A stretch of 64,000 nucleotides of DNA. It comes from Alphaproteobacteria bacterium. Lineage in GTDB: Bacteria; Pseudomonadota; Alphaproteobacteria; JBFXJJ01. Below the pieces are notes generated by a model that saw nothing but the letters and a program-made list of their open reading frames with translations, was not told where the DNA came from and did not search any database. A program made the translations under genes and the position numbers. Location: positions 64,001-128,000 of the forward strand of contig JBFXJJ010000006.1 of assembly GCA_050175015.1 (NCBI GenBank), read 5' to 3'. The stretch's first letter is position 1, and each line of letters begins with the position of its first letter. Below are positions 1,099-53,193 of this stretch, piece by piece.

Positions 1099-2487
1099 AT
1101 GAGAAAAGAACAAGATGCCCTAGGAACAAGAGAACTTGAAGATGATGTTCTTTTTGGAATTCACACTTTAAGAGCTAGTGAAAATTTTGCTGTTTCCAGC
1201 TATGTTATGCCTAAAGTTTTTATCGACGCTTTTACTATGGTTAAAGAAGCTGCGGCAACGACCTCGTTATCGCTAAAAATGCTGGAAGAAAACAAGGCTT
1301 ATGCAATCATAAATGCTTGTCATAAGATTAGGAATGGCGAAGCTTTAAATTACTTGGTAACAGATGCCTTGCAAGGAGGTGCTGGAACTTCAACCAATAT
1401 GAACTTCAACGAAGTTATCGCCAATCTTGCGATAATAGAACTTGGCGGAACCGCTGGCGATTATTCTGTTATCAGCCCGCTTGATGACGTTAACCGCTTT
1501 CAGTCAACCAATGATGTCTATCCAACGGCGTTAAAAGTTGCCTCTCTTCTTTTATTGAAACAACTAGAAAACTCCTCAGCTATTTTACAAGAAGAGCTAC
1601 AAAAAAAAGAACAAGAATTTAAAAATGTTATAAAGGTTGGACGCACAGAATTTCAAGATGCGGTTCCAATGACCTTAGGTATGGAGTTTGGAGCTTTTGC
1701 CGACGCTCTATCACGGGATCGCTGGCGGATTTTTAAATGCCGTGAACGAATCAAACAGGTAAACTTAGGAGGAACAGCGATAGGAACAGGACTTGCAGCG
1801 CCTAGAGAATATATTTTCAAAGTAGTAGAAAACTTGCGCAGTATTTCTGGTCTGGCACTATCCCGTTCAGAAAATCTAATTGATGCAACGGCAAATTCGG
1901 ATAGTTTTGTAGAAGTTTCAGGAATGCTAAAAGCTTTTGCCGCTAATCTTTTTAAAATAGCAAGTGATTTAAGAGTTTTATCCAGCAGCCAGTATGCAGA
2001 AATAACTCTGCCTGCCGTACAGGCGGGATCATCAATTATGCCGTCAAAAATAAACCCTGTTATCCCTGAAATGGTTTCGCAAATTGCACTAAAAATTATG
2101 GCTAACGATAGCCTAATCGCTCAAGCGGCATCTTTGGGAAATATGCAGATTAATCAGTTTATGCCTCTTATTGCCCAAGCTCTTTTAGAATCTCTTGAAC
2201 TGCTTAACAATGCATCTTTAATTTTTGCAGAAAAATGCATTAAAGGAATTACGGCAAATGGTGAAAAATGCCTAACTAATTTTGAAAAAAGCTTTACTCT
2301 GGCTACCGTTTTGGTTCCCATTTTAGGATACAACAAGGTTTCTGAAATTGTAAAAGCTGCAAAATTAAATCAATGCACCATTAAAGAACAACTGCTTCAG
2401 GAAAAGCTTCTTTCTGCAACTGAAATTGATGAATTAATGTCTGCTCAAAATATGTATAAATTAGGATTTGAAAAAAAATATGAATAA
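1099..2487 (+). CDS. aspA: Aspartate ammonia-lyase (fumarase/aspartase superfamily)
   Basis: QGGAGTSTNMN, QSTNDVYPTA, GRTEFQDAVP, and the GSSIMPSKINP catalytic loop. Confidence 0.9.
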   Translation: MRKEQDALGTRELEDDVLFGIHTLRASENFAVSSYVMPKVFIDAFTMVKEAAATTSLSLKMLEENKAYAIINACHKIRNGEALNYLVTDALQGGAGTSTNMNFNEVIANLAIIELGGTAGDYSVISPLDDVNRFQSTNDVYPTALKVASLLLLKQLENSSAILQEELQKKEQEFKNVIKVGRTEFQDAVPMTLGMEFGAFADALSRDRWRIFKCRERIKQVNLGGTAIGTGLAAPREYIFKVVENLRSISGLALSRSENLIDATANSDSFVEVSGMLKAFAANLFKIASDLRVLSSSQYAEITLPAVQAGSSIMPSKINPVIPEMVSQIALKIMANDSLIAQAASLGNMQINQFMPLIAQALLESLELLNNASLIFAEKCIKGITANGEKCLTNFEKSFTLATVLVPILGYNKVSEIVKAAKLNQCTIKEQLLQEKLLSATEIDELMSAQNMYKLGFEKKYE

Positions 2488-3709
2488 GCCAAAAGATAAC
2501 GGTGGAGCAGAAGGCGCCGCCAGAGGAATGAGAACGATTATAACCCTTGTTGGACGCAGAAACGCAGGAAAATCATCTTTGATAAATGCTTTGTGTAATC
2601 AAGAGGTCGCCATTGTTTCTGATATAGCAGGAACAACCACAGACCCCGTAGCCAAAGCTTATGAGTTGCTTCCCCTTGGTCCTGTAACTTTTTATGACAC
2701 AGCAGGAATTGACGACGAAGGAGAAATCGGAAAATTAAGAGTATCTGCAACCAAAAAAGTGTTATGTAGAACCGATATTGCCTTAATGGTAATTAATGAA
2801 CGCGGCATTAAAAAGGAAGAAGAAGATTTAGTAAACGAATTAAAAAAACTTGATATTCCATTCATAATTGTTTTCAACAAATGTGATTTAACATCACCAT
2901 CACAATCTGACATTAAATTCTGCCAAAGCAATGCCATAAACTTTGCTGAAGTATCGGCTAAAAATTATGCTAATATTGACGACCTAAAAGCCAAAATTAT
3001 TGCAACCCTTCCTAAGGATATGATGGCAGAACCCAGCCTTGCCGCCGATCTTATTAAAGAAGGCGATTTTGTTTTATGTATCACTCCGATTGATTTGGCT
3101 GCGCCTAAAGGCAGGCTTATTCTGCCGCAAGTCCAACTGATTAGGGAAATATTAGATTCTGATGCCATTGCCGTTGTTTCTAAAGAAAGAGAAATTGAAG
3201 CGGCGTTATCCAATTTCGGACGAAAACCAAATCTTGTGGTAACAGATTCTCAAGTCGTTTTAAAAGTTGCAGGCGATGTCCCTGATGATATACCACTTAC
3301 AACTTTTTCTATTCTATTTGCTAGATTTAAAGGCGATTTAAAGCTTTTAGTCGATGGAGCGAGAGCGATTGATAAGCTGCAAAATGGGGATAAAGTATTA
3401 ATTGGTGAAGCTTGTTCACATCATAATCAAGCTGATGATATTGGGCGGGTAAAAATCCCAAGATGGCTGACGCAATATACAGGGAAAGATCTTCATTTTG
3501 ACATTTTCTCGGGACACGACTTCCCTGAAAACCTAGAGGATTACAAGTTGGTTATTCATTGCGGAGCCTGTATGATAAATCGCAAAGAAATGGTAAGAAG
3601 GATTGTGGAATGCAACCGCAGAGGAGTTCCAATAACTAATTATGGCGTTTGCATTTCAAAGGTTCAAGGTGTTTTAGAACGTGTGATTAAACCTTTTATT
3701 GGAATTTAA
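2480..3709 (+). CDS. hydF: [FeFe]-hydrogenase maturation GTPase HydF
   Basis: GRRNAGKS, GTTTD, DTAG and NKCD GTPase motifs; APKGRLILPQVQ; CSHH...HCGAC Fe-S motif. Likely ATG at 2480 overlapping the end of aspA. Confidence 0.95.
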   Translation: MNKPKDNGGAEGAARGMRTIITLVGRRNAGKSSLINALCNQEVAIVSDIAGTTTDPVAKAYELLPLGPVTFYDTAGIDDEGEIGKLRVSATKKVLCRTDIALMVINERGIKKEEEDLVNELKKLDIPFIIVFNKCDLTSPSQSDIKFCQSNAINFAEVSAKNYANIDDLKAKIIATLPKDMMAEPSLAADLIKEGDFVLCITPIDLAAPKGRLILPQVQLIREILDSDAIAVVSKEREIEAALSNFGRKPNLVVTDSQVVLKVAGDVPDDIPLTTFSILFARFKGDLKLLVDGARAIDKLQNGDKVLIGEACSHHNQADDIGRVKIPRWLTQYTGKDLHFDIFSGHDFPENLEDYKLVIHCGACMINRKEMVRRIVECNRRGVPITNYGVCISKVQGVLERVIKPFIGI

Positions 3710-27087: not shown

Positions 27088-28743
27088 TCAAATCCTTATA
27101 ACGTGAACATTAATTAACGGTTTTTTTCCGCAAATAGCCGTAAAAGAATGCCTTACTGCCAGCCTTAAAGTTTCTGATACTTTGCCATCATCGAGCTTGT
27201 CTTCTTTTAGCATTTTAGCTAAAGATTTTTGGGCATCTCCTATTATTTTCTGTAAAATATCGGGACTTTCAATATCCTCCAGTAAATCTGGAGCTGAAAT
27301 TTGGATATTGCCTTTAACGTTGCCTTTTTTATCAATGGCAACAGATACTACAGCCGAAGAATTCCACATAATTTTGCGCCGCATCTTGATAAGATTAGAA
27401 TCTAAAGAAACCAAACGATTGCCATCTAAAACTAAAATCCCGACATCAAACTCGTCAATCACGCTGGCATCATCGTCTTCAAATTTGATAACCTGACCAT
27501 TGTTAACCCTTAAAGCTTTATCAACACCAAGACTTAAGGCAAGTTTTTCATGTTCAATTAAATGTATGGGCTCACCATGTATTGGAATTGCGATTTTAGG
27601 TTTTAGAAAGCCATACATTTTCCTTATTTCTTCTTTGGGAGGATGTCCTGAAACGTGAACAAGCTCATCTTTGCCTGTGATAATTTCTATTTTCTTTTCT
27701 GCTAAAATATTTTGGAGTTTCAAAATAGATTTTTCATTGCCAGGAATAACCCTTGAAGAGAAAATTACGACATCACCTTCGTCGAGATAAATATGCTTAT
27801 GATTATCTGACGCTATCCTTAACAAAGCCGAACCCGTTTCACCCTGACTGCCTGTACAGATATATAAAATTTCATTCTCAGGCAAAAAACCTGCTTCGCT
27901 TTCCGTTAAAAAATTAACCCCGTCTAAATAACCAACAGCTTTAGCGGCATCTTCAACTTTCCATAAAGACCGCCCAACCAGACAAACTTGGCGTCCGTTG
28001 GCTTTAGCTGCCCAAGCTATGCTCTCTATTCGAGCAACGTTTGAAGAGAAACACGCAACAGCTATTCTCTTTTTAAATTTTGAAAAAAGTGTAACTAGGC
28101 TGTTTCTTACTTCTGATTCTGATTTTGATTTGCCCTCAACTAAAACATTGGTAGAATCGCAAACAAAAGCTAAAACGCCTTCTTTGCCTACAGATTTAAG
28201 CGTTTTATAATCACTCTCTTCCCCAATCAAAGGATCTGTATCAAATTTCCAATCACCGCTATGAACAATATTGCCGTAAGGCGTTTTGATAAACAACGCA
28301 TTTGCCTCTGGAATAGAATGCGTTACAGAAATAAACCTTATTTCAAAAGGTCCTAAATTGATGGTACTGTTTAACGGCAGAACATCAACATCTACTCTTC
28401 CTAAAAGCCCCGTTTCGTCAAGTCTTGGTTCCAGCATTTCGGCGGCAAACGGTGTTGCATAAACCGGAAATTTTATCTTTGACCATAAATGAGCAATAGC
28501 TCCAATATGATCTTCATGAGCATGGGTAACAACTACACCTAAAAAATCTTTTCTGCGTTCTTCAATAAAAGTAGGATCGACCATCATAATATCTATGCCA
28601 GGAAAATCATCTCCCGCAAAGCCTATCCCCATATCAACGGCTATCCATTTATTGTCACAGCCGTATAGATATAAGTTCATACCAATTTCGCCAACTCCAC
28701 CCAAGGGAATAAAATAAAGTCCTTTATCGTATTTTTTATCCAT
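27088..28743 (-). CDS. rnj: Ribonuclease J
   Basis: PLGGVGEIGMN, THAHEDH, HSIP, GSQGE, HVSGH. Confidence 0.96.
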   Translation of the reverse strand: MDKKYDKGLYFIPLGGVGEIGMNLYLYGCDNKWIAVDMGIGFAGDDFPGIDIMMVDPTFIEERRKDFLGVVVTHAHEDHIGAIAHLWSKIKFPVYATPFAAEMLEPRLDETGLLGRVDVDVLPLNSTINLGPFEIRFISVTHSIPEANALFIKTPYGNIVHSGDWKFDTDPLIGEESDYKTLKSVGKEGVLAFVCDSTNVLVEGKSKSESEVRNSLVTLFSKFKKRIAVACFSSNVARIESIAWAAKANGRQVCLVGRSLWKVEDAAKAVGYLDGVNFLTESEAGFLPENEILYICTGSQGETGSALLRIASDNHKHIYLDEGDVVIFSSRVIPGNEKSILKLQNILAEKKIEIITGKDELVHVSGHPPKEEIRKMYGFLKPKIAIPIHGEPIHLIEHEKLALSLGVDKALRVNNGQVIKFEDDDASVIDEFDVGILVLDGNRLVSLDSNLIKMRRKIMWNSSAVVSVAIDKKGNVKGNIQISAPDLLEDIESPDILQKIIGDAQKSLAKMLKEDKLDDGKVSETLRLAVRHSFTAICGKKPLINVHVIRI

Positions 28744-28762: not shown

Positions 28763-29551
28763 TTAGTCTTTATTAAAGAAAACTTCTCCTGAGTTTATTC
28801 TTTGTCTCTGTCCATATTCATTAATAAATAAAATTGCTCCATCTTGATCTATATCTTCAAATTTTCCCTTTAGGGTTTCTTTTGGCAGTCTAATTACAAT
28901 ATCTTGACCTAAACCATAGGCATTTTCTAGCCAATCTTGTCTTATACCACTAAATCCCTCAATTTTCCAAAAATTAAACATCTCCAAAAATTTTTCTAAA
29001 AAAAGTTCTAGCAGCTTCTCATTTTCAATACTTATACCACAATCAGATAAAGATGTTGCTTTAATAGCACCGTCAACATCATCTGGGTGATTTTTGTTAT
29101 TAACACCCATTCCGATAATAACAAAATCATTTAAGCTCGTACCTGTTGTTTCTATTAATATGCCTGACACTTTGCAATAATCAGATGTTATTACGTCATT
29201 TGGCCATTTACATAAGAACTTTGATTTACCTGTTAACTCGTTAAGGACTTTTGTTAAAGCTAAAGATACAACAAAACTTAATTGCCCCATAACAAAAGCT
29301 TCAGAACTGAATTTTAATATCATTGAAAGATATAAATTTCCTTGGGGACTATGCCATAAACGTCCTCTTCGCCCTTTGCCGCTTTTTTGAATTTTTGAGA
29401 CGACAATCGTTCCCTCTGGTGCGCCATTTGCTGCTAAATCCCTAGCATAATCATTAGTGCTACCAACTTCATCTAATCTAATTATATTCCAAAAAACGCT
29501 GTTTTTATCCAAAGGATGCCACCTAAAACAAAACAGTTCCTTAATAAACAA
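28763..29551 (-). CDS. birA: Biotin-protein ligase (no HTH; start uncertain)
   Basis: STND, QKSGKGRRGRLW, KWPND, KVSGIL. Confidence 0.93.
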   Translation of the reverse strand: MFIKELFCFRWHPLDKNSVFWNIIRLDEVGSTNDYARDLAANGAPEGTIVVSKIQKSGKGRRGRLWHSPQGNLYLSMILKFSSEAFVMGQLSFVVSLALTKVLNELTGKSKFLCKWPNDVITSDYCKVSGILIETTGTSLNDFVIIGMGVNNKNHPDDVDGAIKATSLSDCGISIENEKLLELFLEKFLEMFNFWKIEGFSGIRQDWLENAYGLGQDIVIRLPKETLKGKFEDIDQDGAILFINEYGQRQRINSGEVFFNKD

Positions 29552-29554
29552 CCA

Positions 29555-30964
29555 CTAATTGGGCAATAAAAATGGATACGCACAAACAAGCAGCATTACA
29601 AAAAAACTACAAATCATAACAATACTATTATATAACCCTATATTATCAAATTTTTCATCTGTTTTTTTAAAATAAACAACATCTATAATTCTGATAAAGC
29701 TTAGCAGCATTAAAACAAGGGAAATAACTACACATACAATTAGCCAGTATATTTTGGTTTTCAATAATATCATTAGCAGATGAAAAATACCGTAAAAGCC
29801 AGCTAAAGCTGGAACGCCCGATAAAGACATCATAAAACAAACAAGGACAATAGCCCCAAACGGATGAGAAGAAGCAAAACCTTTAACATCTGCAATATTT
29901 TCAATTAGATTTCCATTTTTTCTTAAGGATAAAACAATTGAGAAAATACCAACGATGCTAATACTGTAAGATGTTACAAGAAATACTACAGCAGACAAAT
30001 CATTTTCTTTGATGCCGATGAATGATGCCCATATATAACCACTATAAACCATAGAACAATATGCCATCATTCTTTTTATGTTTGTTTGAGAAATCATAGC
30101 TATGGAACCTAGAAGCATTGACGCCGCAGCAAAAAACATTAATACAGGCATAAGCTGCGGCCATAAAGGCAAAAAGACATCTTTGATTAAACGAAGCAAC
30201 ACGACAAAATAGGCGATCTTCGGTGTTGACAATAAAAATGATGTTACTGGTGTTGGAGCGCCTTCCGCAATATTAATACTGCCAAAGTTGAACATCGCCA
30301 TATCACATTTAAATAATAAACTGGCAATAACCATAAAAAAACCAGCCATAAGCAAGGCATTGTTTCCGTTCTTTGAAACATACTCCGATACGATTTTAAA
30401 CCCCATACCACCTGTTGTTCCATAAATAAAAGAAACACCGTACAAATAAAATATTGCAACCACTAAACCTATGGCTAAAAATCTTGTTCCCATAATTGTT
30501 GAACGAGTTGCCCTTCTTTTAAAGGCAACCATCAAATACATCGGAAGCATAGAAAGCTCTAACCCCAAATAAAGGGTTATAAATCCTTTTGCAGAGATTG
30601 CTATCATCATTCCAGCTATCGAGAAAATTAAGAAAAAAGGATATTCATAACGCTTAAATTTTTTCAAAATAAGCCATTCATTGGCTAAGAAAATATTAGC
30701 CAAACCACAAAATAGAATTAATATCTTAAAATAAAGTGTTAGCTTATCATTAACTAAAAATGCCTCTAAATTATAATTAGACATATTGAAAAGAGAGAAT
30801 GTTAGAAATAAAGCACCCAATATAATGACTATTGATGATTTTAGAGCCGTATGATGAGAAATTCCGTGCCTAAATGCCCCCAAAACCAACATCACTACAG
30901 GAGCCATCAACAACAAAATTTCAGTTGTTACAAAACCAAATATATTATGAATTAAACTTATCAT
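29555..30964 (-). CDS. nuoN: Complex I subunit N homolog (divergent)
   Basis: LYLGLEL, EGAPTPVT, NIKRMMAY, SLSGVP.LAGF; canonical position before birA. Confidence 0.88.
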   Translation of the reverse strand: MISLIHNIFGFVTTEILLLMAPVVMLVLGAFRHGISHHTALKSSIVIILGALFLTFSLFNMSNYNLEAFLVNDKLTLYFKILILFCGLANIFLANEWLILKKFKRYEYPFFLIFSIAGMMIAISAKGFITLYLGLELSMLPMYLMVAFKRRATRSTIMGTRFLAIGLVVAIFYLYGVSFIYGTTGGMGFKIVSEYVSKNGNNALLMAGFFMVIASLLFKCDMAMFNFGSINIAEGAPTPVTSFLLSTPKIAYFVVLLRLIKDVFLPLWPQLMPVLMFFAAASMLLGSIAMISQTNIKRMMAYCSMVYSGYIWASFIGIKENDLSAVVFLVTSYSISIVGIFSIVLSLRKNGNLIENIADVKGFASSHPFGAIVLVCFMMSLSGVPALAGFYGIFHLLMILLKTKIYWLIVCVVISLVLMLLSFIRIIDVVYFKKTDEKFDNIGLYNSIVMICSFFVMLLVCAYPFLLPN

Positions 30965-30969
30965 AAGCT

Positions 30970-32343
30970 TTACCCTAACTCCGCAATAACTTGATTGGCA
31001 AAACTAAAAATTACAGCAAAAATTTTAGTTTGAAAAACAGCAAGAATAATGGTTGCTGCAATTAATGATAAAAAAGTTAGATAGTCTTTTTTATATCCTA
31101 TTTTGCTATTAGCAATATTGCGATTTTTTGCAAGCACGCTGATTGACGAGAAGAAAATAGCAACAACCGCAATTATCATAAAAACAATATCTTTCTTCAT
31201 TAGCTCTGAAATCATTATAATAAAACCAGAGAATACCGCAAAAGGAGGAAAAACAATAATTACAGGCAAAATTAAAAATTTTAAAACATCTAATATGCTT
31301 TTTTCATTATCCAAGATTTCCTCAAATTCAAATTGCAGCATCATCAAGGGAAAACAAAAAGCAATAAAGATAAAAATTACCGATGCCATCAAAAGTGCAT
31401 CAAATGAAAACAATCCGATTGTAACTATTCCCAAATAAATTCCAAAAAGATAGCTTAAAAATCTAAACGTATTCCGCTCTAAAACAACACATATAGAGCA
31501 ATATACCGTAGTAATAGAAGCCATAATTACTATAATATTGCCATATTCAACACAAACTTTAGGCAACAGCGGCATCACAAAGTGCAAAACCACATAAACA
31601 AAGCTCATAATTTGACAAGTAAGGAAAAATGATGCCACAGGAGCCTCTAGTTTCCTTAAAAAACCAGCCAGCCAAAAATGATTAGGAACAAAGCCTAGTC
31701 TCAAAAATAGCGAAGCTGCTATTAAAATAAACGTCAGCCTATTTATGTTACAATCTCCTGTTTCCTTATTAAAAAGGTAGCAGACAACCGCCGTTAAAAA
31801 TAAAAAAGAAGATAACAATAAATTAAGAACAGGCCACTTTTCTTTGGTGTTGTCCTCTTCTTCCATATTTATTCGACTTATAAAAATGAAAGGAATTGGA
31901 AGTATGAAGAAAAACACATTAAAAAGCATAATATTCAAAGATGAAAACATACCGTTACCAATGGCTGTGGCCAAAAGTATACTAACAATATATTCTTTGT
32001 GTTTTTCTTTATTCTTATCTCTTAAGGAAAAAACACAAAGCATACTCAAAAATGAGTTAATCATAATAAATATTAAAGATACAGCTTCAACGCCAACAGC
32101 GTGTTCTATTTTAAATTCATTATTAAAAATATCTCTTTTTTCTAATAATTGAAACCCAAGCTTGCTAAAGTCATAACGAAGCACCAAAGATGCGGCAAGA
32201 ATAAAAGTTGATATTACAGTTAATAATGCAACATTGCTGGTATTTTTAGAAATCGTCAAATTTTCGTTTCTAATAAAAAAGATAAAAAATATGCCCATTA
32301 GCGGCAAAAATGTAATTAAAGATAAAATCGGCCAATTTGTCAT
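30970..32343 (-). CDS. nuoM: Complex I subunit M homolog (highly divergent)
   Basis: WPILSLITFLPL N-terminus typical of alpha NuoM, P.H.WL, antiporter-like hydrophobicity, synteny. Confidence 0.8.
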   Translation of the reverse strand: MTNWPILSLITFLPLMGIFFIFFIRNENLTISKNTSNVALLTVISTFILAASLVLRYDFSKLGFQLLEKRDIFNNEFKIEHAVGVEAVSLIFIMINSFLSMLCVFSLRDKNKEKHKEYIVSILLATAIGNGMFSSLNIMLFNVFFFILPIPFIFISRINMEEEDNTKEKWPVLNLLLSSFLFLTAVVCYLFNKETGDCNINRLTFILIAASLFLRLGFVPNHFWLAGFLRKLEAPVASFFLTCQIMSFVYVVLHFVMPLLPKVCVEYGNIIVIMASITTVYCSICVVLERNTFRFLSYLFGIYLGIVTIGLFSFDALLMASVIFIFIAFCFPLMMLQFEFEEILDNEKSILDVLKFLILPVIIVFPPFAVFSGFIIMISELMKKDIVFMIIAVVAIFFSSISVLAKNRNIANSKIGYKKDYLTFLSLIAATIILAVFQTKIFAVIFSFANQVIAELG

Positions 32344-34070
32344 TTATAAAACACTACAAAACTTAAAGTTAAAATCAACGTTACGGCAAAAAACAGAGCA
32401 TTAAATGTAAAATTATTCTTTTGATAAAGTTTGGCAAATTTCTTTAAAAGCTCAAACATTTTATCAATAATTTTTTCGATTGTCCTATTCAAAATTCTGT
32501 TATTAACTTTGTTTTTTAAGGCTATACCAAAACGAAACATAGGGAAAGCAACCACTTTAAAAAAGAACATATCCGCTTTTTCAGCAAAAGAAAACCTAAC
32601 TTCTTTAGAGCAGATATTCCGTCTGTAAATTTTTTCAGCCCAAAAAATGCCGACAGCAACTGCGATTAAACGATAACCAGAAAACATATTAAACTTGATA
32701 TAGTAAGAAACGATACTCAAAAATATAGCAGTAACAGACATTGATGATAAAATAAACAATGAACGTTCTTGAACTCTTGCAAACACAGCGTCTTCAGCTT
32801 TGGTTGTCCCCAAGCAGGAACAAATGATAATTCTTGCAACCGCAAAAGCAAAAACACCACTTGCCAAAAGCTCCCAGACATTAATCATATAATCAATTTT
32901 TACTATTTTTATGCTTAGATAAGGAACAAGCATAAAAGCTGCCCCAACCAACATCATAAAATATGTTGCTGGCAAAAGCTTTTTTGCTCCCCCCATTTTA
33001 TCCAGCCTGTACTCGCTAGAAAATGCCTCTATCAAAGAACCACAAGCTAGGAAATAAAGCAGGCTTGCCGTGATTTGAAATACTGCAAAGAAAACAAAAC
33101 CGTCCAAACCATTTAAAACAAAATAAGTAATCATTAAACCCATCTGTGATGAAATCAAAAAAGCGAGCGATGATGCGATATCTTTTTCAAAAACAGCAAA
33201 TATTGGCGATAAAAATACAGTTGCTACCCCAAGAATCATAGCTATTTCAACAATTTTAGGATTAAACAACAAAACATCAGAAAGCCTTGTCATAACAATC
33301 ATAAAACATAATGGAACGGTAATTGTTGCCGTGACAATAAAACTTGGGAAATGAGCTCTTGATGTTTTTATAAAGACCAAATTTCCAATAATAAAACCGC
33401 CTTTTACCCATACAAACAGCCAAAGCAAGCTCGAAACAATGTTAATGAGTTCCTTTTTATTCTCAAAATTATTATCTTGAACAAAACCATCATTGCCAAA
33501 AGTTGAAAGCCAAATGGCAAAAGCTACAAATATCAAGAAACTGCCAATGGTCTCAAACACCATAAAGCTCAAAAGGCTATCTTTGGATTCATCTTGCCTG
33601 CGACCGTTGACAATTAATATCCCTGCAAACAAAAGAGCCAAATCCATACCTAAAATTAATTGAAAAAAACCTGTGGCTAAAATAGCTATTTTTAAGAAAA
33701 ATATCTGTGAACTGAGAATAGAAAAAATTGCATTTTTGCTTGTTCCAACGATAGAGAAAGAATAACAAAAAACAAAAACACAAAAATAGATTATTGCAAG
33801 AATTAAAAGATACGTTACTGAGGCTTTATCAACAATGAAGCCGTAAGTTAAATAAAAATTTTCCTTAAAAAGCAGCTGAAAAACCGCGGTCTGTAAATTT
33901 CCATCTGCTCCAATAAAAACTAAAAAGCTAAAAAAAACATCAACAAAAGCTAAAAGAGGAAAAACTAACTCTGATGCCTTTTTTTTGTTAAACTTTTCCA
34001 AAACTATACTAGCGAAAACGGCTAAAAAATTAACCGATAAAACACTGTAAAAAGAAAAAAGTGTCACCAT
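32340..34070 (-). CDS. nuoL: Complex I subunit L homolog (highly divergent)
   Basis: DIA..LAF..SSQMG, GSLI, KMGG remnants; synteny between nuoK and nuoM. Confidence 0.8.
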   Translation of the reverse strand: MVTLFSFYSVLSVNFLAVFASIVLEKFNKKKASELVFPLLAFVDVFFSFLVFIGADGNLQTAVFQLLFKENFYLTYGFIVDKASVTYLLILAIIYFCVFVFCYSFSIVGTSKNAIFSILSSQIFFLKIAILATGFFQLILGMDLALLFAGILIVNGRRQDESKDSLLSFMVFETIGSFLIFVAFAIWLSTFGNDGFVQDNNFENKKELINIVSSLLWLFVWVKGGFIIGNLVFIKTSRAHFPSFIVTATITVPLCFMIVMTRLSDVLLFNPKIVEIAMILGVATVFLSPIFAVFEKDIASSLAFLISSQMGLMITYFVLNGLDGFVFFAVFQITASLLYFLACGSLIEAFSSEYRLDKMGGAKKLLPATYFMMLVGAAFMLVPYLSIKIVKIDYMINVWELLASGVFAFAVARIIICSCLGTTKAEDAVFARVQERSLFILSSMSVTAIFLSIVSYYIKFNMFSGYRLIAVAVGIFWAEKIYRRNICSKEVRFSFAEKADMFFFKVVAFPMFRFGIALKNKVNNRILNRTIEKIIDKMFELLKKFAKLYQKNNFTFNALFFAVTLILTLSFVVFYK

Positions 34071-34361
34071 TTAAACAGCCTCCTCTCCGTCGGTTCTGTG
34101 CTTACGGAAACAAACAAGCATAATAGCAAGAGAAACCGCTATTTTAGCCGCACCAACAGCAAGAATAAGCATATAAAAAACTTCTCCCATAATATCGCCG
34201 TGATACTTTGCAAAAGCCATAAAATTAATCGCTATACCTGCCTGCATAACAAAGAAAGCGATTATAATCCGAGCAATTGAACCTTTACTAGTAACGGCTC
34301 CATAAAAACCGATTACAAAGACCACGAAAGCAAGCAGAAGAAAATGATAAATTGTAATCAT
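34071..34361 (-). CDS. nuoK: Complex I subunit K homolog
   Basis: 3 TMs, INFMAF, GD..G..F, AVGAA.IAVSLAI. Confidence 0.85.
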   Translation of the reverse strand: MITIYHFLLLAFVVFVIGFYGAVTSKGSIARIIIAFFVMQAGIAINFMAFAKYHGDIMGEVFYMLILAVGAAKIAVSLAIMLVCFRKHRTDGEEAV

Positions 34362-34951
34362 ATTTTGGCTCCCTCTTTTTCTGGTGCAAGTTTAACTAGC
34401 TCTAAATCTTCATCTTTATGGATTTTTGATTTTTTAATTTTTTCCTGTTCTTTGCCTTCTATACCATAAACAAGCATTATAGCCCCCGAAGCTCCACAGA
34501 AAAGAATGACACCTGAAATTTGAAATAGGAAATATCTGCTGTAAAAGAGGTGACGTCCAAGTTCTTTAAATGAAAAAATATCATTATTTACTGCTATTTC
34601 TTTTACATTACTTACCCCAAAAAATGCCGCAACAACGTTAATTAGAAATACTAGAAATAAAGAGAACATAAAAAAAGCAAATAAATTTTTAATGTTTTTG
34701 GAATCATACGAATTATTTTCTTCAATCATAATGGCAAAAACAGTAACCACGCATATTGAAGATAAATCTATCAGCCCTAAAGACAACGCAACAAACTCGA
34801 AACCAAGAGCAATCAAAATTCCTGATAAAGTACAAATAAAAGGCACCAAAAACAATAAACCGCTTATTTTATTTTTGGAACTAACCGCAAGTATTGCAAA
34901 AAATATTAGCAATACTGCGAAAAAATAAAATATGGTATCACTTAAAATCAT
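34358..34951 (-). CDS. nuoJ: Complex I subunit J homolog
   Basis: FYFFA, EFVA, LG..L...Y..LFQ.SG.IL...GAI.L; synteny. Confidence 0.8.
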   Translation of the reverse strand: MILSDTIFYFFAVLLIFFAILAVSSKNKISGLLFLVPFICTLSGILIALGFEFVALSLGLIDLSSICVVTVFAIMIEENNSYDSKNIKNLFAFFMFSLFLVFLINVVAAFFGVSNVKEIAVNNDIFSFKELGRHLFYSRYFLFQISGVILFCGASGAIMLVYGIEGKEQEKIKKSKIHKDEDLELVKLAPEKEGAKI

Positions 34952-34959
34952 AATATAAA

Positions 34960-35841
34960 TTATCCATTAAAAACCACATAACCTGCGGTAAAAAAGCTCC
35001 AAAAAACGTTTATTGGAAAAATAAATTTCCACAAAAAACCCAAAAGTTGATCTTCTCTAAATCTTGGGGTCGTATATTTAATAAACATCATAAGAACTAA
35101 ACATAAGGCTATTTTAAGAACAAACCAGACAAACTGAGGAATTTTTAACAGCCAAAGAGCGCCACCTATCGGCAGCCAGCCACCTAAAAACATAACCGTA
35201 ACAAAAGCTGCAACCGCAAGCATTGAGAGAATGTCGCCCAAATCAAACAACATTAAAGATAGTCCAGAATATTCACTGCGGTACCCTCCTGTAATCTCGG
35301 TTGTACCATCAGAAAAATTGAGAGGTTTCAACATCATAAAAGCAATCATAGAGAAAACAAAACCTATGAAAGTAAGAATATGCGGAAAAACAAACCACAT
35401 ATCTCTCTGGGCATCAACAATGTCAGCAAATTTCAAAGAATGAGACGAAATAACAACAGGAATAACACTAGAAAATGCTACAAGCCTAGAGTTTATAATC
35501 TGCCTAGCTGCTCGGAGGCTTCCAATAACAGCATTTCTTGTATTACTACCTATGCCTGCCATAATGCAGCCAAAAACATCAAGGCATAAAACCACAAATA
35601 CCAAAAACAAACCGGCCTCAACATTCGCAAAAGCCGCCTTTTCACTAAAAGGAATAAGCAGAAAAACAAGCATTGCAACACAAATGTTGATTACAGGAGC
35701 AACCGCGAAAAAGACACTATCGGCATCTTTAGGTAAACTGTATTTTTTAGTATGTACTTTAAAAATTGATAAAAAATCTGAAGTCAAACCTTTTGCTAAA
35801 TTTATGAAAAACTGAGATAAAAAACACTTCATAATAACCAC
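34960..35841 (-). CDS. nuoH: Complex I subunit H homolog (N-terminally shortened)
   Basis: IGSLRAA, EITGGY.SEYSG, FLGGW, PRFREDQL..F.WK. Confidence 0.88.
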   Translation of the reverse strand: MVIMKCFLSQFFINLAKGLTSDFLSIFKVHTKKYSLPKDADSVFFAVAPVINICVAMLVFLLIPFSEKAAFANVEAGLFLVFVVLCLDVFGCIMAGIGSNTRNAVIGSLRAARQIINSRLVAFSSVIPVVISSHSLKFADIVDAQRDMWFVFPHILTFIGFVFSMIAFMMLKPLNFSDGTTEITGGYRSEYSGLSLMLFDLGDILSMLAVAAFVTVMFLGGWLPIGGALWLLKIPQFVWFVLKIALCLVLMMFIKYTTPRFREDQLLGFLWKFIFPINVFWSFFTAGYVVFNG

Positions 35842-35846
35842 AATTC

Positions 35847-36989
35847 CTATTTATCAATATTAGCAGAAGAAACGTCTAAACTCGCAACAATCAAAGGAAC
35901 ATCTGAAATAAAGCTTCCCTTAAGCAGCATATTTAAGGATCCTGCATGAGCAAGGCTTGGCGTCCTGATGCTACAACGATAAGGCTTATCTGTTCCATCA
36001 GATACAATAAAAACACCTAACTCGCCTTTAGGGCTTTCAACACAACTTAAAACCTCATCTTTATCATTAGGTTTTATATCATAACTACTTAAAATACTGC
36101 TATATTTATTATTCCTGCCTGAACTTAAAACATCAATTTCACCTTGCGGAATCTTAATAAGAGCCTGATTAATTATTGCCATTGATTGTTTTATCTCTTC
36201 AAATCTTACAAGACATCTAGCATAGCAATCTCCAGCCTCACACACTGGAATTTCAAAGTCAAAATCAGCATATACACCATAAGATGTTTTTCTTCTCAAG
36301 TCCCACACACAGCCTGAAGCTCTAAGACAAGGACCAGAAAAACCTAAAGACATCGCTTGATCAAAATCAACAAACCCGACATCTTTTGTCCTGACCTTAA
36401 AACCATAATTATTGGTTACAACCTTATCAACTTCTTCAAGAAAACAAGATAATTCATTGTTTAAAAATGATTTTATTCCAAAAACAAAATCATCAGACAA
36501 ATCAAATCTAACTCCGCCCAAACAAAAGAGACCTTCTTGAATTCTAACATCTAGCGTTTTTGTATAAATTTCAACAAGTTGCCGTTTTAACTTAACCGAT
36601 ACACTTAAGATATTGTCCATACCAACTGTGTTGCAAATATTTCCAATATTAATAATATGATTGATAATTCGAGCAATTTCAGCGTGAACAGTTCTTATAT
36701 AAGATGCCCTTTTGCTAACCTCGATATTAGCCAGATATTCACAAGCTAAAACAAATGGATATTCAGAAGAAAAAGGAACGCTATTATCAATACGGCTCAT
36801 ATAGGGAATAATATTGGCATATTTTTTACTTTCAAAGCTCTTCTCTAAGCCTTTATGATAATATCCAACATAAGTCTCGGCATCACTTATAGCCTCACCC
36901 TCAACGTGAAGACGGAACTTTATCCCGCAAGCAAGATAATTCTCAACCCCTATCTCAAATGTATCAGAAACAGCTTTATTATGAACCAT
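35847..36989 (-). CDS. nuoD: Complex I subunit D homolog (divergent)
   Basis: GY.HKGLEK, GFSGP.LRASG, GDCYAR, ESPKGELG, PYRC.IR; no NiFe CxxC pairs. Confidence 0.9.
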   Translation of the reverse strand: MVHNKAVSDTFEIGVENYLACGIKFRLHVEGEAISDAETYVGYYHKGLEKSFESKKYANIIPYMSRIDNSVPFSSEYPFVLACEYLANIEVSKRASYIRTVHAEIARIINHIINIGNICNTVGMDNILSVSVKLKRQLVEIYTKTLDVRIQEGLFCLGGVRFDLSDDFVFGIKSFLNNELSCFLEEVDKVVTNNYGFKVRTKDVGFVDFDQAMSLGFSGPCLRASGCVWDLRRKTSYGVYADFDFEIPVCEAGDCYARCLVRFEEIKQSMAIINQALIKIPQGEIDVLSSGRNNKYSSILSSYDIKPNDKDEVLSCVESPKGELGVFIVSDGTDKPYRCSIRTPSLAHAGSLNMLLKGSFISDVPLIVASLDVSSANIDK

Positions 36990-37010: not shown

Positions 37011-37604
37011 TCAGCCCTTTATCTGGCAGCAAGCCCCAAAAGCACTACAAGTTGTTTGCTCGTTTTCTTTGGGAAAAAGCCTAATAATTTTGCGATTATC
37101 ATCAAATTTTTTCTCGAACTCACCATTAAGAGGAAAATCTTTTCTTAAAGGATACCCCTTAAACCCAAAATCATTATAAAGACGCCTTAAATCTGGGTGT
37201 TCGGCAAAACATATCCCAAACATATCCCAAACCTCTTGCTCATACCAAACAGCAGAGTCATAGACTTGAGATACTGATTTTACCAGTTTCAAGCCATCGT
37301 TTGTTATTCGAACAATAATTCTCTGATTAAGCTCGTGGCTTAAAATATGATATAAAACCTCAAAACGCTCTTCTTTTTCAGGGTAATCTATCCCCGAAAT
37401 ATTAGTTAAACTAGAAAATCTACAGTTAGCATCATCTCTTAGAAAAGAAAGAACTCTAGGAAGCAGCCTAGGCTGCGCATATATATTAAGAATGCCGTTT
37501 TTTATCACAACATTTTTAATGCTGTCTTGAAGACTCGCTTCAATATAAGCCGCAAGATTTTCAAGATTATTCTCTATTTGTAACCGACGATGTTTCTTTT
37601 TCAT
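37011..37604 (-). CDS. nuoC: Complex I subunit C
   Basis: WYEQEVWDMFG, HPDLRR, GYPLRKDFPL. Confidence 0.93.
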   Translation of the reverse strand: MKKKHRRLQIENNLENLAAYIEASLQDSIKNVVIKNGILNIYAQPRLLPRVLSFLRDDANCRFSSLTNISGIDYPEKEERFEVLYHILSHELNQRIIVRITNDGLKLVKSVSQVYDSAVWYEQEVWDMFGICFAEHPDLRRLYNDFGFKGYPLRKDFPLNGEFEKKFDDNRKIIRLFPKENEQTTCSAFGACCQIKG

Positions 37605-37613
37605 AGCTTTTTG

Positions 37614-38075
37614 CTAGTCCTTGTTAGTAATAAATTTAAAAACATCAAAAATGAGACTTGGATCTGGAGGACAACCAACCACCTGAATATCAACAGGCAC
37701 AATCTTATCAACGCCTCTAACTAAGGAATAAGAAGAATAAAGCCCACCAGAACAGGCGCAAGATCCAACCGCCACAACCCATTTAGGAAACGCCATTTCG
37801 TCATAAACATGCCTTATAATTGGAGCAACCTTATTAGTTATTTCTCCAGAAAAGACCATAACATCACAATGTTTAGGACTATTTTTAATCGAGACTTTTA
37901 AGCTTTTATCAACACTGCTGTACGGCATAAACATATCCAGCCCACAACAGCCTTGATCCAATAGATATACCGCAAGAGAATTAGTTATAATTTTCTTATT
38001 TTCTCTTAAAACCACAAATTTTGAATTAGATGGAACTTTACCAGCATCATTAAGACTACAGCTTATCTTTTCCAT
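37614..38075 (-). CDS. nuoB: Complex I subunit B homolog (cluster N2)
   Basis: CC, PKWVVAVGSCA, GVDKIVPVD, GCPP. Confidence 0.92.
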   Translation of the reverse strand: MEKISCSLNDAGKVPSNSKFVVLRENKKIITNSLAVYLLDQGCCGLDMFMPYSSVDKSLKVSIKNSPKHCDVMVFSGEITNKVAPIIRHVYDEMAFPKWVVAVGSCACSGGLYSSYSLVRGVDKIVPVDIQVVGCPPDPSLIFDVFKFITNKD

Positions 38076-38419
38076 TCGAAGCCTCCCTTACACAAAACGT
38101 ATACCAACGTAAAGAGTTGAATAAGAAAGTAGGCTAAAATCACAAAGAATAGTTTCCAGCCAATATTAAACAATGAAACCGCCCAAAGCATAAAAAACAC
38201 CATAACCGGAGAAAATACTACAAAGACTATCGCAACAGGAAAATTTTGAAACGAGAAATAGCCATTAAAAAACGCTTTTTCTTTTCTTATTTCTGAGATT
38301 TTTTGATTATTATCGGTTATTTTTTTAGCGATAAAAAAGGAAACAAGCGGCATAATGATAATAAAAATCAATACAAAAAAAAGAAAAAATCCTAGATAGC
38401 CGTCAGGAATAGTAACCAT
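38063..38419 (-). CDS. nuoA: Complex I subunit A homolog (divergent)
   Basis: 118 aa, 3 TMs, VAIVFVVF..., C-terminal KGGFEW; overlaps nuoB. Confidence 0.8.
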   Translation of the reverse strand: MVTIPDGYLGFFLFFVLIFIIIMPLVSFFIAKKITDNNQKISEIRKEKAFFNGYFSFQNFPVAIVFVVFSPVMVFFMLWAVSLFNIGWKLFFVILAYFLIQLFTLVYVLCKGGFEWKR

Positions 38420-38467: not shown

Positions 38468-38809
38468 TTATTTTCTCAAACCAGAAAAACTTTCTTGAGA
38501 AATTGGCAATTTTTTGACAATTCTAATTGGCACTTCATATTCAACTGCAATATCATCATTATCAAATTCAACCACCAAGACAGTATCAGCATAAAACAAT
38601 GACTGTCTAGCTTCTGGGTGAATGTAATCAAGCATAATAGTAAGTCCGTTATTGCGGTACAGCAAAGCGTGTTCGCCGCCGTCATAAACGATTTTAGGCT
38701 CTTCTGGCAGCCCTTTTCTTGCTTTAATTGAGATTAACAAATCACCAGAAGAATTTTGCAATATATCATAGAGTTCTTCTTGTTCTGGTTTTACTTGTTT
38801 CTCTAACAT
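38468..38809 (-). CDS. Hypothetical soluble protein immediately upstream of nuoA
   Basis: 113 aa, AGGAG RBS, same strand, 48-nt gap to nuoA. Confidence 0.75.
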   Translation of the reverse strand: MLEKQVKPEQEELYDILQNSSGDLLISIKARKGLPEEPKIVYDGGEHALLYRNNGLTIMLDYIHPEARQSLFYADTVLVVEFDNDDIAVEYEVPIRIVKKLPISQESFSGLRK

Positions 38810-50357: not shown

Positions 50358-50786
50358 ATGCCTGTACTTTGGAGAAATGACTTAAGTGTTGGCTGCAAAG
50401 ATATTGATAACGACCATAAAAATTGGCTTAATGTAGTCAATGTTGTATCAATGGGAGTTGATTCTGGAGATGTTAAGTTAGTAAAAAAAGCTATGGATGA
50501 TGCTGTTGAATATTCTAGGCAGCATTTTTATCGTGAAGAAAAACTAATGAAAAACATCAGTTACCCGTATTATGAAGAACACTTTGAAATTCATTCAACT
50601 TTTATTGAAAAAATAAATGATTTTCAAACAGATATGAATATGAATATGGATTATCACCCTGAAGAAGCTATGAAAATAGGTAAAAAGTTCGCAACTTTTA
50701 CTAGGAACTGGCTTTTGAGTCACATAAAAAATGAAGACAGCAAAATCAGTCCTTTCATTAATAACAAATGTGATAATCTCGATTAA
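50358..50786 (+). CDS. Bacteriohemerythrin
   Basis: IDNDH, HFYREE, HFEIH, WLLSHIKNED di-iron ligands. Confidence 0.92.
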   Translation: MPVLWRNDLSVGCKDIDNDHKNWLNVVNVVSMGVDSGDVKLVKKAMDDAVEYSRQHFYREEKLMKNISYPYYEEHFEIHSTFIEKINDFQTDMNMNMDYHPEEAMKIGKKFATFTRNWLLSHIKNEDSKISPFINNKCDNLD

Positions 50787-51771: not shown

Positions 51772-53193
51772 TCAACTAAGGCGTTTTTTTAGTTCTTTCG
51801 TTGAAACGCCCGTTTCCATTTCAAAAAATTCAATCTTTTCCAAGTGCTTATTTAACTTCTCATCAGGAAGCTTAGTTTGAATACGAGCAACCGTTCCTTC
51901 TGGAACTTTTGAAGCATCTATCGTTTTAAAAAGATTTTTATCAATTTTTATCAAAGAGTTTTTATTGGGAGAAACCATCTCACATTCTTTGTCATTAACG
52001 GCATCGATAAGTTTATCCAAAACTACTTGATGATTGCCCATACCATTGGGCATAACAAACTCAATAACATCGTTTGGTCTTAGTGTATTTTTAACCTCAA
52101 ACACAATTTGACTATCGCTGTTTTCTTTAATCATTCCCGCAAACAGCCACTCACCTAAAGGTGATGTTACGTTATAATCGTGAGCCAGATGCGTTGGTAT
52201 TCCTCGATGGAACCCTAAACTGTAACCTCTGGTTTGAACGGTATAAAGCTCTTTCATAAAAGGAATAGGCGAAAAGTCTTCGGGATTATTAAAATAGCTG
52301 TCTATTGCTAAGCGATAAGCTTTTGCGGTAACCGCTACATAATAAGCACTCTTATTTCTTCCTTCTATTTTCAAGGAATCAAGATTAGCCGATAAAACCT
52401 CATCTAAGACAGGAAGCAGACATAAATCTTTAGCGTTAAAAAGAAAACTGCCATTTTCGTTTTCTTCAACTTCCAAAAACTCTCCTGGTCTGAATTCCTC
52501 TTCTACTAAGAAATTAAATAAATCCCTATTCTTATCATTTATTGGTATTTCTTCAATACTGCCATCTTTAAGTTTTAAATGCAGCTTATAATTCCAGCGG
52601 CAGGAATGAGAACATATTCCTTTATTAGCGGAACGATTGGTTAAATAAGATGATATTAAACATCTTCCCGAATGGCTCATACACATTGCGCCGTGAACAA
52701 ACGCCTCCAACCTAACATCAGGGCATTTTTCTCTTATGGTTTTAATTTCATTAATCGAAAGCTCTCGGGCAAGAATACAAAGACTTGCGCCTCTTTTCTG
52801 CCACGATTTAACGGTTAAATATGATGCTATATTAGCCTGTGTCGAAATATGCTTAGGAACATTAGGAGCAAGATCCATTGCCAAATCAAAAACCCCGTTA
52901 TCCGAAATGATAAAGCCGTCAGGATTAAGAGTAGCTAACTTAGGAATAGCAACTGCCAGCTTTTCAATATCATCATTGCGGGAAACAACGTTTAAGTTAA
53001 GATAAACTTTTTTCCCTAAACTATGAGCAAATTTTATTCCTTCACTAAGTTCATCAGCTTCAAATTTAGCCTGAGAACGCAAAGAAAAAGCGGAAGAACC
53101 TGCATAGATAGCATCTGCGCCATATAAAAATGCGGTCTTCATTTTTAAATAATCGCCAGCTGGCAACAATAATTCTGGTTTTTTTATCTTCAT
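51772..53193 (-). CDS. U32-family Fe-S protein (TrhP/YegQ-like tRNA hydroxylation)
   Basis: ELLLPAG, GADAIY, HGAMC.S.SGRC...C.HSCR, LKIEGR. Confidence 0.85.
   Translation of the reverse strand: MKIKKPELLLPAGDYLKMKTAFLYGADAIYAGSSAFSLRSQAKFEADELSEGIKFAHSLGKKVYLNLNVVSRNDDIEKLAVAIPKLATLNPDGFIISDNGVFDLAMDLAPNVPKHISTQANIASYLTVKSWQKRGASLCILARELSINEIKTIREKCPDVRLEAFVHGAMCMSHSGRCLISSYLTNRSANKGICSHSCRWNYKLHLKLKDGSIEEIPINDKNRDLFNFLVEEEFRPGEFLEVEENENGSFLFNAKDLCLLPVLDEVLSANLDSLKIEGRNKSAYYVAVTAKAYRLAIDSYFNNPEDFSPIPFMKELYTVQTRGYSLGFHRGIPTHLAHDYNVTSPLGEWLFAGMIKENSDSQIVFEVKNTLRPNDVIEFVMPNGMGNHQVVLDKLIDAVNDKECEMVSPNKNSLIKIDKNLFKTIDASKVPEGTVARIQTKLPDEKLNKHLEKIEFFEMETGVSTKELKKRLS

Follow-up and report, generated by a model that had tools for sequence, protein, structure and literature searches.

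A ten-gene alphaproteobacterial nuo operon that has lost most canonical charges of the complex I membrane arm and may be kept as a scaffold

We analysed a 64,000-nucleotide stretch of DNA (the window: positions 64,001 to 128,000 of contig JBFXJJ010000006.1, assembly GCA_050175015.1) from an alphaproteobacterial metagenome-assembled genome (MAG), in which a single compact minus-strand operon, nuoABCD-H-JKLMN, encodes core subunits homologous to those of respiratory complex I, in nuo gene order and at the ancestral locus. All ten reading frames were intact and closely packed, several of them overlapping, with a G+C content of 30-38%, and nine of the ten open reading frames (ORFs) matched the expected Pfam family. 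The first five genes were nuoA (38063..38419; 118 amino acids; Oxidored_q4, 28.2 bits), nuoB (37614..38075; 153 amino acids; Oxidored_q6, 80 bits), nuoC (37011..37604; 197 amino acids; Complex1_30kDa, 132.9 bits), nuoD (35847..36989; 380 amino acids; Complex1_49kDa, 231.7 bits) and nuoH (34960..35841; 293 amino acids; NADHdh, 210.1 bits over profile positions 40-298). The distal half (29555-34951) comprised nuoJ (34358..34951; 197 amino acids; Oxidored_q3, 63.7 bits), nuoK (34071..34361; 96 amino acids; Oxidored_q2, 60.6 bits), nuoL (32340..34070; 576 amino acids; Proton_antipo_M), nuoM (30970..32343; 457 amino acids) and nuoN (29555..30964; 469 amino acids; Proton_antipo_M, 144.4 bits). The match to Pfam thus fell from the high score of NuoD to only 44.1 bits for NuoL, and NuoM matched no Pfam family at E<=0.01; it was identified by a phmmer search of the PDB, in which the closest solved chain was Paracoccus NuoM (E 6.6e-21), and by its fold. 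The closest solved chain for NuoN was likewise the Paracoccus NuoN (E 9.3e-53). The public protein record of NuoM (P0001, 429 amino acids) begins 28 residues downstream of the ORF start used here; because the upstream start gives a 4-nucleotide overlap with the nuoL stop and an N-terminus that aligns with those of canonical NuoM, the public record probably starts too late.

To number the residues, MAFFT alignments were built with the Escherichia coli K-12 operon as reference and the nuo loci of eight genomes of the same class; seven of these loci were retrieved with all 14 genes and the eighth with nuoL, nuoM and nuoN only. Nineteen axis positions in NuoJ, K, L, M and N were invariant in all 8-9 comparators; in the window, six of these were kept, two were changed conservatively and 11 were lost. 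The six kept residues were E133, K217 and K247 of NuoN (E136, K219 and K249 in the window) and K229, K399 and D400 of NuoL (K223, K391 and D393). NuoM retained none of its four key charges, E144 being replaced by F146, K234 by R215 and E407 by F374, with a gap at K265; in addition, H322 was replaced by Y303 and H348 fell in a gap. NuoL kept two of the four residues of its key set plus the change of E144 to D143, and had lost D178, H254 (V246), H334 (F328), H338 (Q332) and K342 (S336). NuoN kept three of four, with K395 replaced by I393, and carried the further changes of H224 to Asn and K158 to Arg. In NuoK, both glutamates were gone (E36 to F37 and E72 to K73), and in NuoJ the tyrosine Y59 was replaced by D62, the equivalent of Glu55 being retained as E52. 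A sequence-only reading of this DNA had described the central axis as largely erased, and the short strings that it quoted (AVGAAKIA in NuoK, LIDLSSI in NuoJ, FNVFFF in NuoM, GFYGIF in NuoN, FSPV in NuoA and NSR in NuoH) were all present in the translated ORFs. Every substitution that it listed was reproduced by MAFFT, including E144 to Asp, the loss of the IHAAT and HAFFKA motifs and the conserved K229 in NuoL; the kept K399 and D400 had been overlooked.

HMMER alignments to the solved chains gave the same mapping for NuoM and NuoL as MAFFT did. In a joint alignment of the paralogues, the glutamate of transmembrane helix (TM) 5, the lysine of TM7 and the lysine or glutamate of TM12 were present in 12 of 12 canonical NuoL, NuoM and NuoN sequences, so that the loss along the axis goes beyond chance or plain divergence. 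The full set by which complex I can be recognised in each of these three subunits (TM5 Glu, TM7 Lys, TM8 Lys/His and TM12 Lys/Glu) was incomplete in the window. As NuoL and NuoJ were just 19.5% and 25.5% identical to the canonical sequences, the calls at single columns, such as K265 and K399/D400, carry some alignment risk. No shifted equivalents of NuoK E36 and E72 or of NuoM E144 were seen in the alignments. It is clear from the same alignments that the lost charges had often given way to bulky hydrophobic residues, namely Phe at NuoK 36, NuoM 144 and 407 and NuoL 334, Val at NuoL 254 and NuoA 81, and Ile at NuoN 395. At two positions the charge was switched rather than lost, NuoK E72 to K73 and NuoJ Y59 to D62, and both of these residues adjoin retained acids, the NuoN E133 equivalent (E136) and the NuoJ Glu55 equivalent. 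Fixed ion pairs in which K73 and D62 take part may keep what was once the proton relay locked, if the chain runs as described in PMC8357420.

The acids of the E-channel were affected in the same way. NuoA had lost its TM1-2 loop motif and its TM2 acids (D79 to S70, E81 to V72 and E51 to R45). In NuoH, E157 was replaced by R119, E216 by Asp, E218 by Thr, R209 by Leu and D213 by Asn, only E220 and E228 being retained, and about 40 N-terminal residues, corresponding to TM1 and the loop after it, were missing. The loss of the NuoA motifs and of the glutamate in the SYE string of NuoH had also been pointed out from the sequence alone and was borne out by the alignments. With NuoK E36 and E72 and NuoJ Tyr59 replaced as well, all that remained of the E-channel was the equivalents of NuoJ Glu55 and of NuoH E220 and E228. 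The quinone site of NuoD was likewise dismantled. Tyr273 and His224 (E. coli numbering), described as the ligands of the quinone head group in PMC8357420, were replaced by N69 and C21, and further changes were found at D325 (T121) and H220 (N17). The beta1-beta2 loop of NuoD was remodelled to a GxENY motif, and there was a deletion around E. coli positions 498-515.

In NuoB, the C-terminal helix was shortened, and the cysteines that would bind the iron-sulfur cluster N2 were retained in four of four positions (C63, C64, C129 and C158, aligned with C43, C44, C106 and C135). The share of canonical-invariant columns that was kept differed widely among the ten subunits: 79% in NuoC (30 of 38), 62% in NuoN, 59% in NuoD, 53% in NuoB, 49% in NuoH, 44% in NuoA, 42% in NuoK, 32% in NuoJ, 30% in NuoM and 27% in NuoL. 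The view that NuoN is the best preserved subunit therefore holds among the membrane subunits (62% vs 27-49% in the other six) and not for the operon as a whole, in which NuoC ranks first. Since NuoC carries no cofactor and was kept best of all, the better preservation of NuoN can equally be explained by structural constraint. At its C-terminus (37011-37040), NuoC carries a short tail in which three cysteines fall in a span of nine residues.

The electron-input module was missing together with the relay that leads to N2. The MAG (2.53 Mb in 49 contigs, 99.4% complete) was searched for further nuo genes; E. coli Nuo queries revealed one nuo locus in the whole genome, and nuoE, nuoF, nuoG and nuoI were found neither in the operon nor elsewhere in the genome as complex I genes. 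The gap of 5 nucleotides between nuoD and nuoH leaves no room for nuoE, nuoF and nuoG, and nuoI is cleanly absent from the 8 nucleotides between nuoH and nuoJ. Matches to E. coli NuoE, NuoF and NuoG were confined to a cluster on contig C4, fused to or beside an [FeFe] hydrogenase, and the other Complex1_51K match adjoins RnfD. For NuoI, the model TIGR01971 gave seven weak matches in the genome, all within larger proteins, with a top score of 29.4 bits against a cut-off of 113.05. The ferredoxin motif CxxCxxCxxxCP did not occur in the 64-kb window, and two copies of it were present genome-wide in only two small ORFs, one of them a membrane protein. A 216-amino-acid ORF with two such clusters on contig C12 was considered as a hidden NuoI and rejected, as it is a membrane ferredoxin-like protein beside a hydrogenase. 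With the axis residues lost and, in addition, no NuoE, F, G or I, no Tyr273 or His224 in NuoD and the E-channel largely gone, the proposal that the complex is not a four-proton pump is strongly supported, beyond the argument made for it from the sequence alone.

The genome encodes other enzymes for the same substrates. A full-scoring Na+-NQR was found outside the window, with nqrABCD at the end of contig C27 (5076-8946) and nqrF at the start of contig C5 (650-1852). Contamination of the MAG was rejected as the source of the Nqr genes: C27 matches the rest of the genome in composition, and the set goes on with nqrF on C5, a contig of 173 kb. Rnf, an ATP synthase, three CPA-type Na+/H+ exchangers and four [FeFe] hydrogenase genes (C4:657-4366, C8 and C12) were also present. 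The hydrogenase on C4 is a HydABC-like cluster with NuoE/F-like subunits, the sole homologues of the lost N-module, and the [FeFe]-hydrogenase maturase HydF is encoded within the window (2468-3709, plus strand). Searches of the genome for a haem-copper oxidase (COX1), cytochrome bd and SdhA/FrdA gave no hit, nor did those for a UbiA-family prenyltransferase, UbiE/MenG, MenB, MqnA and UbiD, the controls being positive in each search. So the host is an anaerobic fermenter, in which the turnover of NADH and ferredoxin and the pumping of ions are covered by other enzymes. The electron acceptor of Na+-NQR is a puzzle, as neither a quinol-oxidising enzyme nor any of the quinone-biosynthesis markers searched was found in the genome. 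In this oxidase-less organism, the window also encodes a hemerythrin-domain protein (50358-50786, plus strand) and a peptidase-U32 protein (51772-53193, minus strand). The U32 family includes O2-independent quinone hydroxylases, and the latter protein may bear on the quinone puzzle of Na+-NQR.

Directly downstream of nuoN, and on the same strand, lie birA (28763-29551) and then rnj, encoding RNase J (27088-28743), both assigned by Pfam. In the canonical loci, birA followed nuoN in eight of eight cases and rnj was present in seven of eight, and the arrangement in the window is identical. It follows from this nuoN-birA-rnj synteny that the operon is the vertically inherited alphaproteobacterial one, and a horizontally acquired paralogue was ruled out on the same ground. 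ProS, encoded in the same window, was 60-67% identical to its counterparts in many alphaproteobacterial orders, and the best PDB matches of NuoM and NuoN were to Paracoccus and plant mitochondria, which together identify the host as an alphaproteobacterium. The Nuo subunits of the window were 19.5-42% identical to the canonical ones (24% for NuoM), while canonical sequences were 53-76% identical to one another. Judged from these identities, the acceleration is specific to the nuo genes, and the genome is not fast-evolving overall.

The predicted folds were conserved in spite of this divergence. The AlphaFold2 (AF2) model of NuoM (predicted local distance difference test, pLDDT, 84.3; predicted template modelling score, pTM, 0.89) preserved the antiporter fold with its broken TM7 and TM12. 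Its top Foldseek matches were NuoM, Nad4 and NdhD at template modelling scores of 0.84-0.91, and MrpD chains also matched, at 0.81-0.83. The model of NuoL (pLDDT 80.4) placed C-terminal helices at 495-526, 531-550 and 554-575, so that NuoL is predicted to retain its long C-terminal helices as well as the last TM helix.

Relatives that share the losses were found among metagenome proteins. A full-length NuoM of 452 amino acids (P0002) was 48% identical to that of the window and shared E144F, K234R and E407F together with 42 further replacements at canonical-invariant columns. Two full-length NuoD relatives of 379 and 366 amino acids (P0043 and P0044), 56-58% identical, shared H220N, the replacement of Y273 (Asn or Asp), the GxENY loop and the same deletion, and in a tree the three NuoD sequences grouped as a clade on a long stem. 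GxENY was invariant in three of three NuoD sequences of this clade, and the old His224 position varied among Cys, Leu and Ser. All three relatives were unnamed singletons in protein clusters. The occurrence of the same losses in full-length relatives at 48-58% identity indicates that the stripped state predates the split of these lineages and that the frames have been kept since; the stripped form is accordingly old and maintained, and not a fresh pseudogene.

Wider searches returned canonical or distant sequences. A scan of metagenome contigs with the NuoM pair gave four loci, all canonical and 27-30% identical, and in a scan of genome contigs with the three NuoD sequences, 443 pattern matches yielded 246 relatives, with a top identity of 37% among the best 80 that were kept. 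A match was present in 34 of 40 related genomes (best 31% identical), and 88 of 400 sampled genomes of the class matched at E<=1e-30 (best 33%); each of these two sets includes one unpublished genome (G040 and G239, respectively), which gave canonical-like matches only and carries no claim. A clade relative of NuoN was not found in a near-length search, in which the best non-self match was 35-36% identical, and none of NuoL was found among 1.84 billion representatives, where the best non-self match had an E of 1.8e-12 and 25% identity. No member of the stripped clade, and no relative with the whole operon, was found among the genomes and metagenome contigs searched.

These data bear on the possibility that the operon is a neutral relic in the course of being lost, with genes that are functionless and have so far escaped disruption or deletion. 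The extreme divergence of NuoL (19.5%) and NuoM (24%) from the canonical sequences, the failure of NuoM to reach any Pfam model, a drift towards AT-codon residues in NuoL, M, J, K and A and the presence of replacement enzymes (Na+-NQR and Rnf) would all be expected of such a relic. They have to be set against ten of ten intact and tightly packed frames at the G+C content given above, the survival of full-length frames with the same substitutions since the split from the relatives, and the confident AF2 models. Furthermore, the canonical-invariant columns of NuoM were 67% identical between the window and P0002 (72 of 107), compared with 48% overall. We regard the neutral relic as the least probable of the explanations weighed here.

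A second possibility is that the operon encodes a new redox enzyme, in which N2 receives electrons directly from a soluble ferredoxin or a hydrogenase and an acceptor other than quinone is reduced at the GxENY pocket, whether or not NuoL and NuoN couple this to ion movement. In its favour, the N2 cysteines are complete though just 53% of the invariant columns of NuoB survive, and GxENY is invariant in the clade next to a variable old histidine position. The host also has a ferredoxin-rich metabolism, with hydrogenases, Rnf and the HydF of the window, and MBS, as described in PMC7684303, shows that a cluster of this module can itself be catalytic. However, no known family member functions without a NuoI-type subunit, the smallest complex I-like form described in the account of PMC3144371 being one of 11 subunits with NuoI included. 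Residues around N2 and the pocket have been lost (H355 to Gln, D325 to Thr and Y273 to Asn), there is no obvious acceptor, and the residues for coupling are missing. Such an enzyme is improbable in our assessment, ranking next above the neutral relic. A [NiFe] hydrogenase was ruled out, as NuoD is without CxxC pairs and its best family is Complex1_49kDa.

The third possibility is a residual secondary transporter, in which H+ or Na+ still passes through NuoN, NuoL or both, working as an Mrp-like antiporter or uniporter module without redox drive. It draws on the kept E133, K217 and K247 of NuoN, the kept K229, K399 and D400 of NuoL with its E144D, the preserved fold and broken helices in the models, and energetics that look sodium-based (Na+-NQR and Rnf). 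No Mrp operon was found in the genome with E. coli NuoL, NuoM and NuoN as queries, MrpB, E, F and G not having been searched by family, and isolated NuoL and NuoN can replace MrpA and MrpD according to PMC4938563. On the other hand, K395 of NuoN is replaced by Ile, and the corresponding alanine mutant of E. coli (K395A) is almost inactive, with only about 6-20% of pumping left as given in PMC13073174. NuoL has lost the TM8 histidine and the TM11 His/His/Lys set, NuoK has lost both glutamates, NuoM, which lies between NuoL and NuoN, is fully stripped, and three CPA-type Na+/H+ exchangers are already present. Transport stands foremost among the three alternatives and is still unlikely. The suggestion that any remaining transport would centre on NuoN found no specific support, as K395 and NuoK E36 and E72 are gone and NuoL keeps as many key residues; with three exchangers at hand, no antiport role is needed from the relic.

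We favour, with moderate confidence, the interpretation that the operon encodes a ten-subunit remnant of complex I (NuoA, B, C, D, H, J, K, L, M and N) that has degenerated in place and is kept as a redox-dead scaffold for a non-pumping role. The ten subunits would still assemble into an L-shaped scaffold, with no turnover of NADH or quinone and no pumping of protons. Hydrophobic residues, often Phe, would plug the former proton paths and so keep the undriven arm from leaking, and at most a minor ion path would be left in NuoL or NuoN. The turnover of NADH and ferredoxin and the pumping of ions would have passed to Na+-NQR and Rnf, and selection would keep the scaffold for a non-respiratory role, most likely a structural one. 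A related and more doubtful proposal is that the complex I scaffold has been re-used, either as an enzyme that passes electrons from ferredoxin to N2 and acts on a non-quinone substrate at the GxENY pocket, or as a purely architectural ten-subunit "pseudoenzyme"; we hold it only tentatively, as a possibility on the improbable side.

Several observations weigh against the redox-dead scaffold. The evidence comes from one MAG and three short contigs known as proteins, and the stretch in the window was present in one DNA sequencing run only, from a landfill metagenome, with no RNA run among the holders. That the subunits assemble is something we infer from their sequences. All N2 ligands are kept and a new invariant GxENY occupies the old quinone pocket, which could mean remaining or new redox chemistry. 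Possible near-shifts of lost charges were seen at NuoN H395 (+2 from I393), at NuoN K402 and K404 and at NuoM E380 (+6 from F374 and conserved in P0002). Moreover, charges within hydrophobic stretches were not scarce in a crude hydropathy count (18 in the NuoL of the window vs 6-12 in canonical ones, and 15 vs 9-16 for NuoN), which means that "erased" holds for the canonical positions and not for charge content as such, and non-canonical ion paths are possible on these counts. NuoL, M, J, K and A were richer in the AT-codon residues Phe, Tyr, Met, Ile, Asn and Lys (FYMINK fraction 0.40-0.47) than two membrane subunits of the Na+-NQR in this genome, NqrB and NqrD (0.33-0.34); the fraction in canonical NuoH, L, M and N was 0.27-0.29, and Phe made up 12-19% of the residues in NuoA, H, J, L and M of the window. 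This enrichment fits relaxed constraint on NuoL, M, J, K and A and could reflect slow decay. Finally, Na+-NQR implies a quinone pool though no biosynthesis marker was found, and the absence of quinone from the cell is not established.

Comparison with known systems places the operon outside each of them. The best sequence and fold matches were to the canonical 14-subunit complex I (e.g., that of Paracoccus denitrificans, PDB 8qby), with which the operon shares the gene order, the nuoN-birA-rnj neighbourhood, the N2 ligands of NuoB, the antiporter fold and, as predicted here, the long C-terminal helices of NuoL; it is without the NuoE, F, G and I subunits, the quinone Tyr and His, the E-channel acids, 11 of the 19 axis residues and the N-terminal helix of NuoH that the canonical enzyme has. 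Operons without nuoEFG are described as common, and their products are regarded as working, ion-translocating enzymes with other donors (PMC4453560, PMC3144371, PMC11238625). Such 11-subunit enzymes, among them cyanobacterial and chloroplast NDH-1, archaeal Fpo and those of Desulfitobacterium and the Bacteroidota, also occur in anaerobes alongside Na+-NQR and Rnf, as here, and in the accounts of these same sources they retain NuoI. The window operon has, in contrast, an incomplete NuoABCDHIJKLMN set in which NuoI, the quinone site and the pump residues are additionally missing, and by its synteny it derives from the 14-subunit alphaproteobacterial operon and not from the ancestral 11-subunit form.

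The Mrp Na+/H+ antiporter, whose MrpA, MrpD and MrpC are homologous to NuoL, NuoM/N and NuoK, resembles the operon in having antiporter-like subunits without redox drive. The gene order and subunits specific to Mrp are nevertheless missing here, and the operon is of the nuo type with NuoB, C, D and H. The MrpA-G gene set, with conserved Glu and Lys in MrpA and MrpD and an acidic residue in MrpC, has no full counterpart in the operon, MrpB, E, F and G not having been searched by family; the NuoK glutamates are lost, and the Lys/Glu set that Mrp shares with NuoL, M and N, as set out in PMC13073174, is largely missing. In group 4 membrane-bound [NiFe] hydrogenases (Mbh, Ech and Hyc), the nickel and iron are bound by a pair of CxxC motifs of the large subunit, and no such pair was found in NuoD. 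The operon thus falls short of the defining features of all four systems (complex I, the 11-subunit form, Mrp and the membrane-bound hydrogenases), although its descent from complex I is clear. A further parallel is offered by anaerobic mitochondrion-related organelles, in which respiratory function was lost in an anaerobic alphaproteobacterial or mitochondrial descendant with [FeFe] hydrogenase, as here. What typically persists in hydrogenosomes is the NuoE/F part, whereas the operon in the window keeps the opposite half, the membrane arm with NuoBCD. In the literature, judged from titles and abstracts, we found no report of a NuoI-less, charge-stripped operon or of a nuoABCDHJKLMN set.

Upstream of nuoA, at a distance of 49 nucleotides and on the same strand, lies an ORF of 113 amino acids (38468-38809, minus strand) with a good Shine-Dalgarno-like site. 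It matched no Pfam family and contains no cysteines; a protein atlas gave a weak lead to PilZN-like domains (score 0.91; pLDDT of its own model 0.37). A scan for promoters and terminators performed no better than shuffled sequence (59 vs 50 and 11 vs 9.6, respectively).

The known complex I-type machines, namely the 14-subunit and 11-subunit forms, the hydrogenases and Mrp, all retain a NuoI-type subunit, the Lys/Glu axis or both. In the operon described here, the input module, the relay, the quinone site and the pump residues are gone while ten intact genes have been kept through deep divergence, as in a knock-out series made by nature. The requirements for folding and assembly of the scaffold can thereby be told apart from those for its work, and NuoC, the N2 ligands, the broken helices and the long C-terminal helices of NuoL appear to belong to the former. 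The changes from Glu to Phe suggest that uncoupled proton channels are actively plugged. A non-respiratory role for complex I is raised as a possibility, and either form of re-use, if true, would not have been described before. The operon would represent a bacterial counterpart, within the Alphaproteobacteria, of the reduction of the respiratory chain in anaerobic mitochondria.

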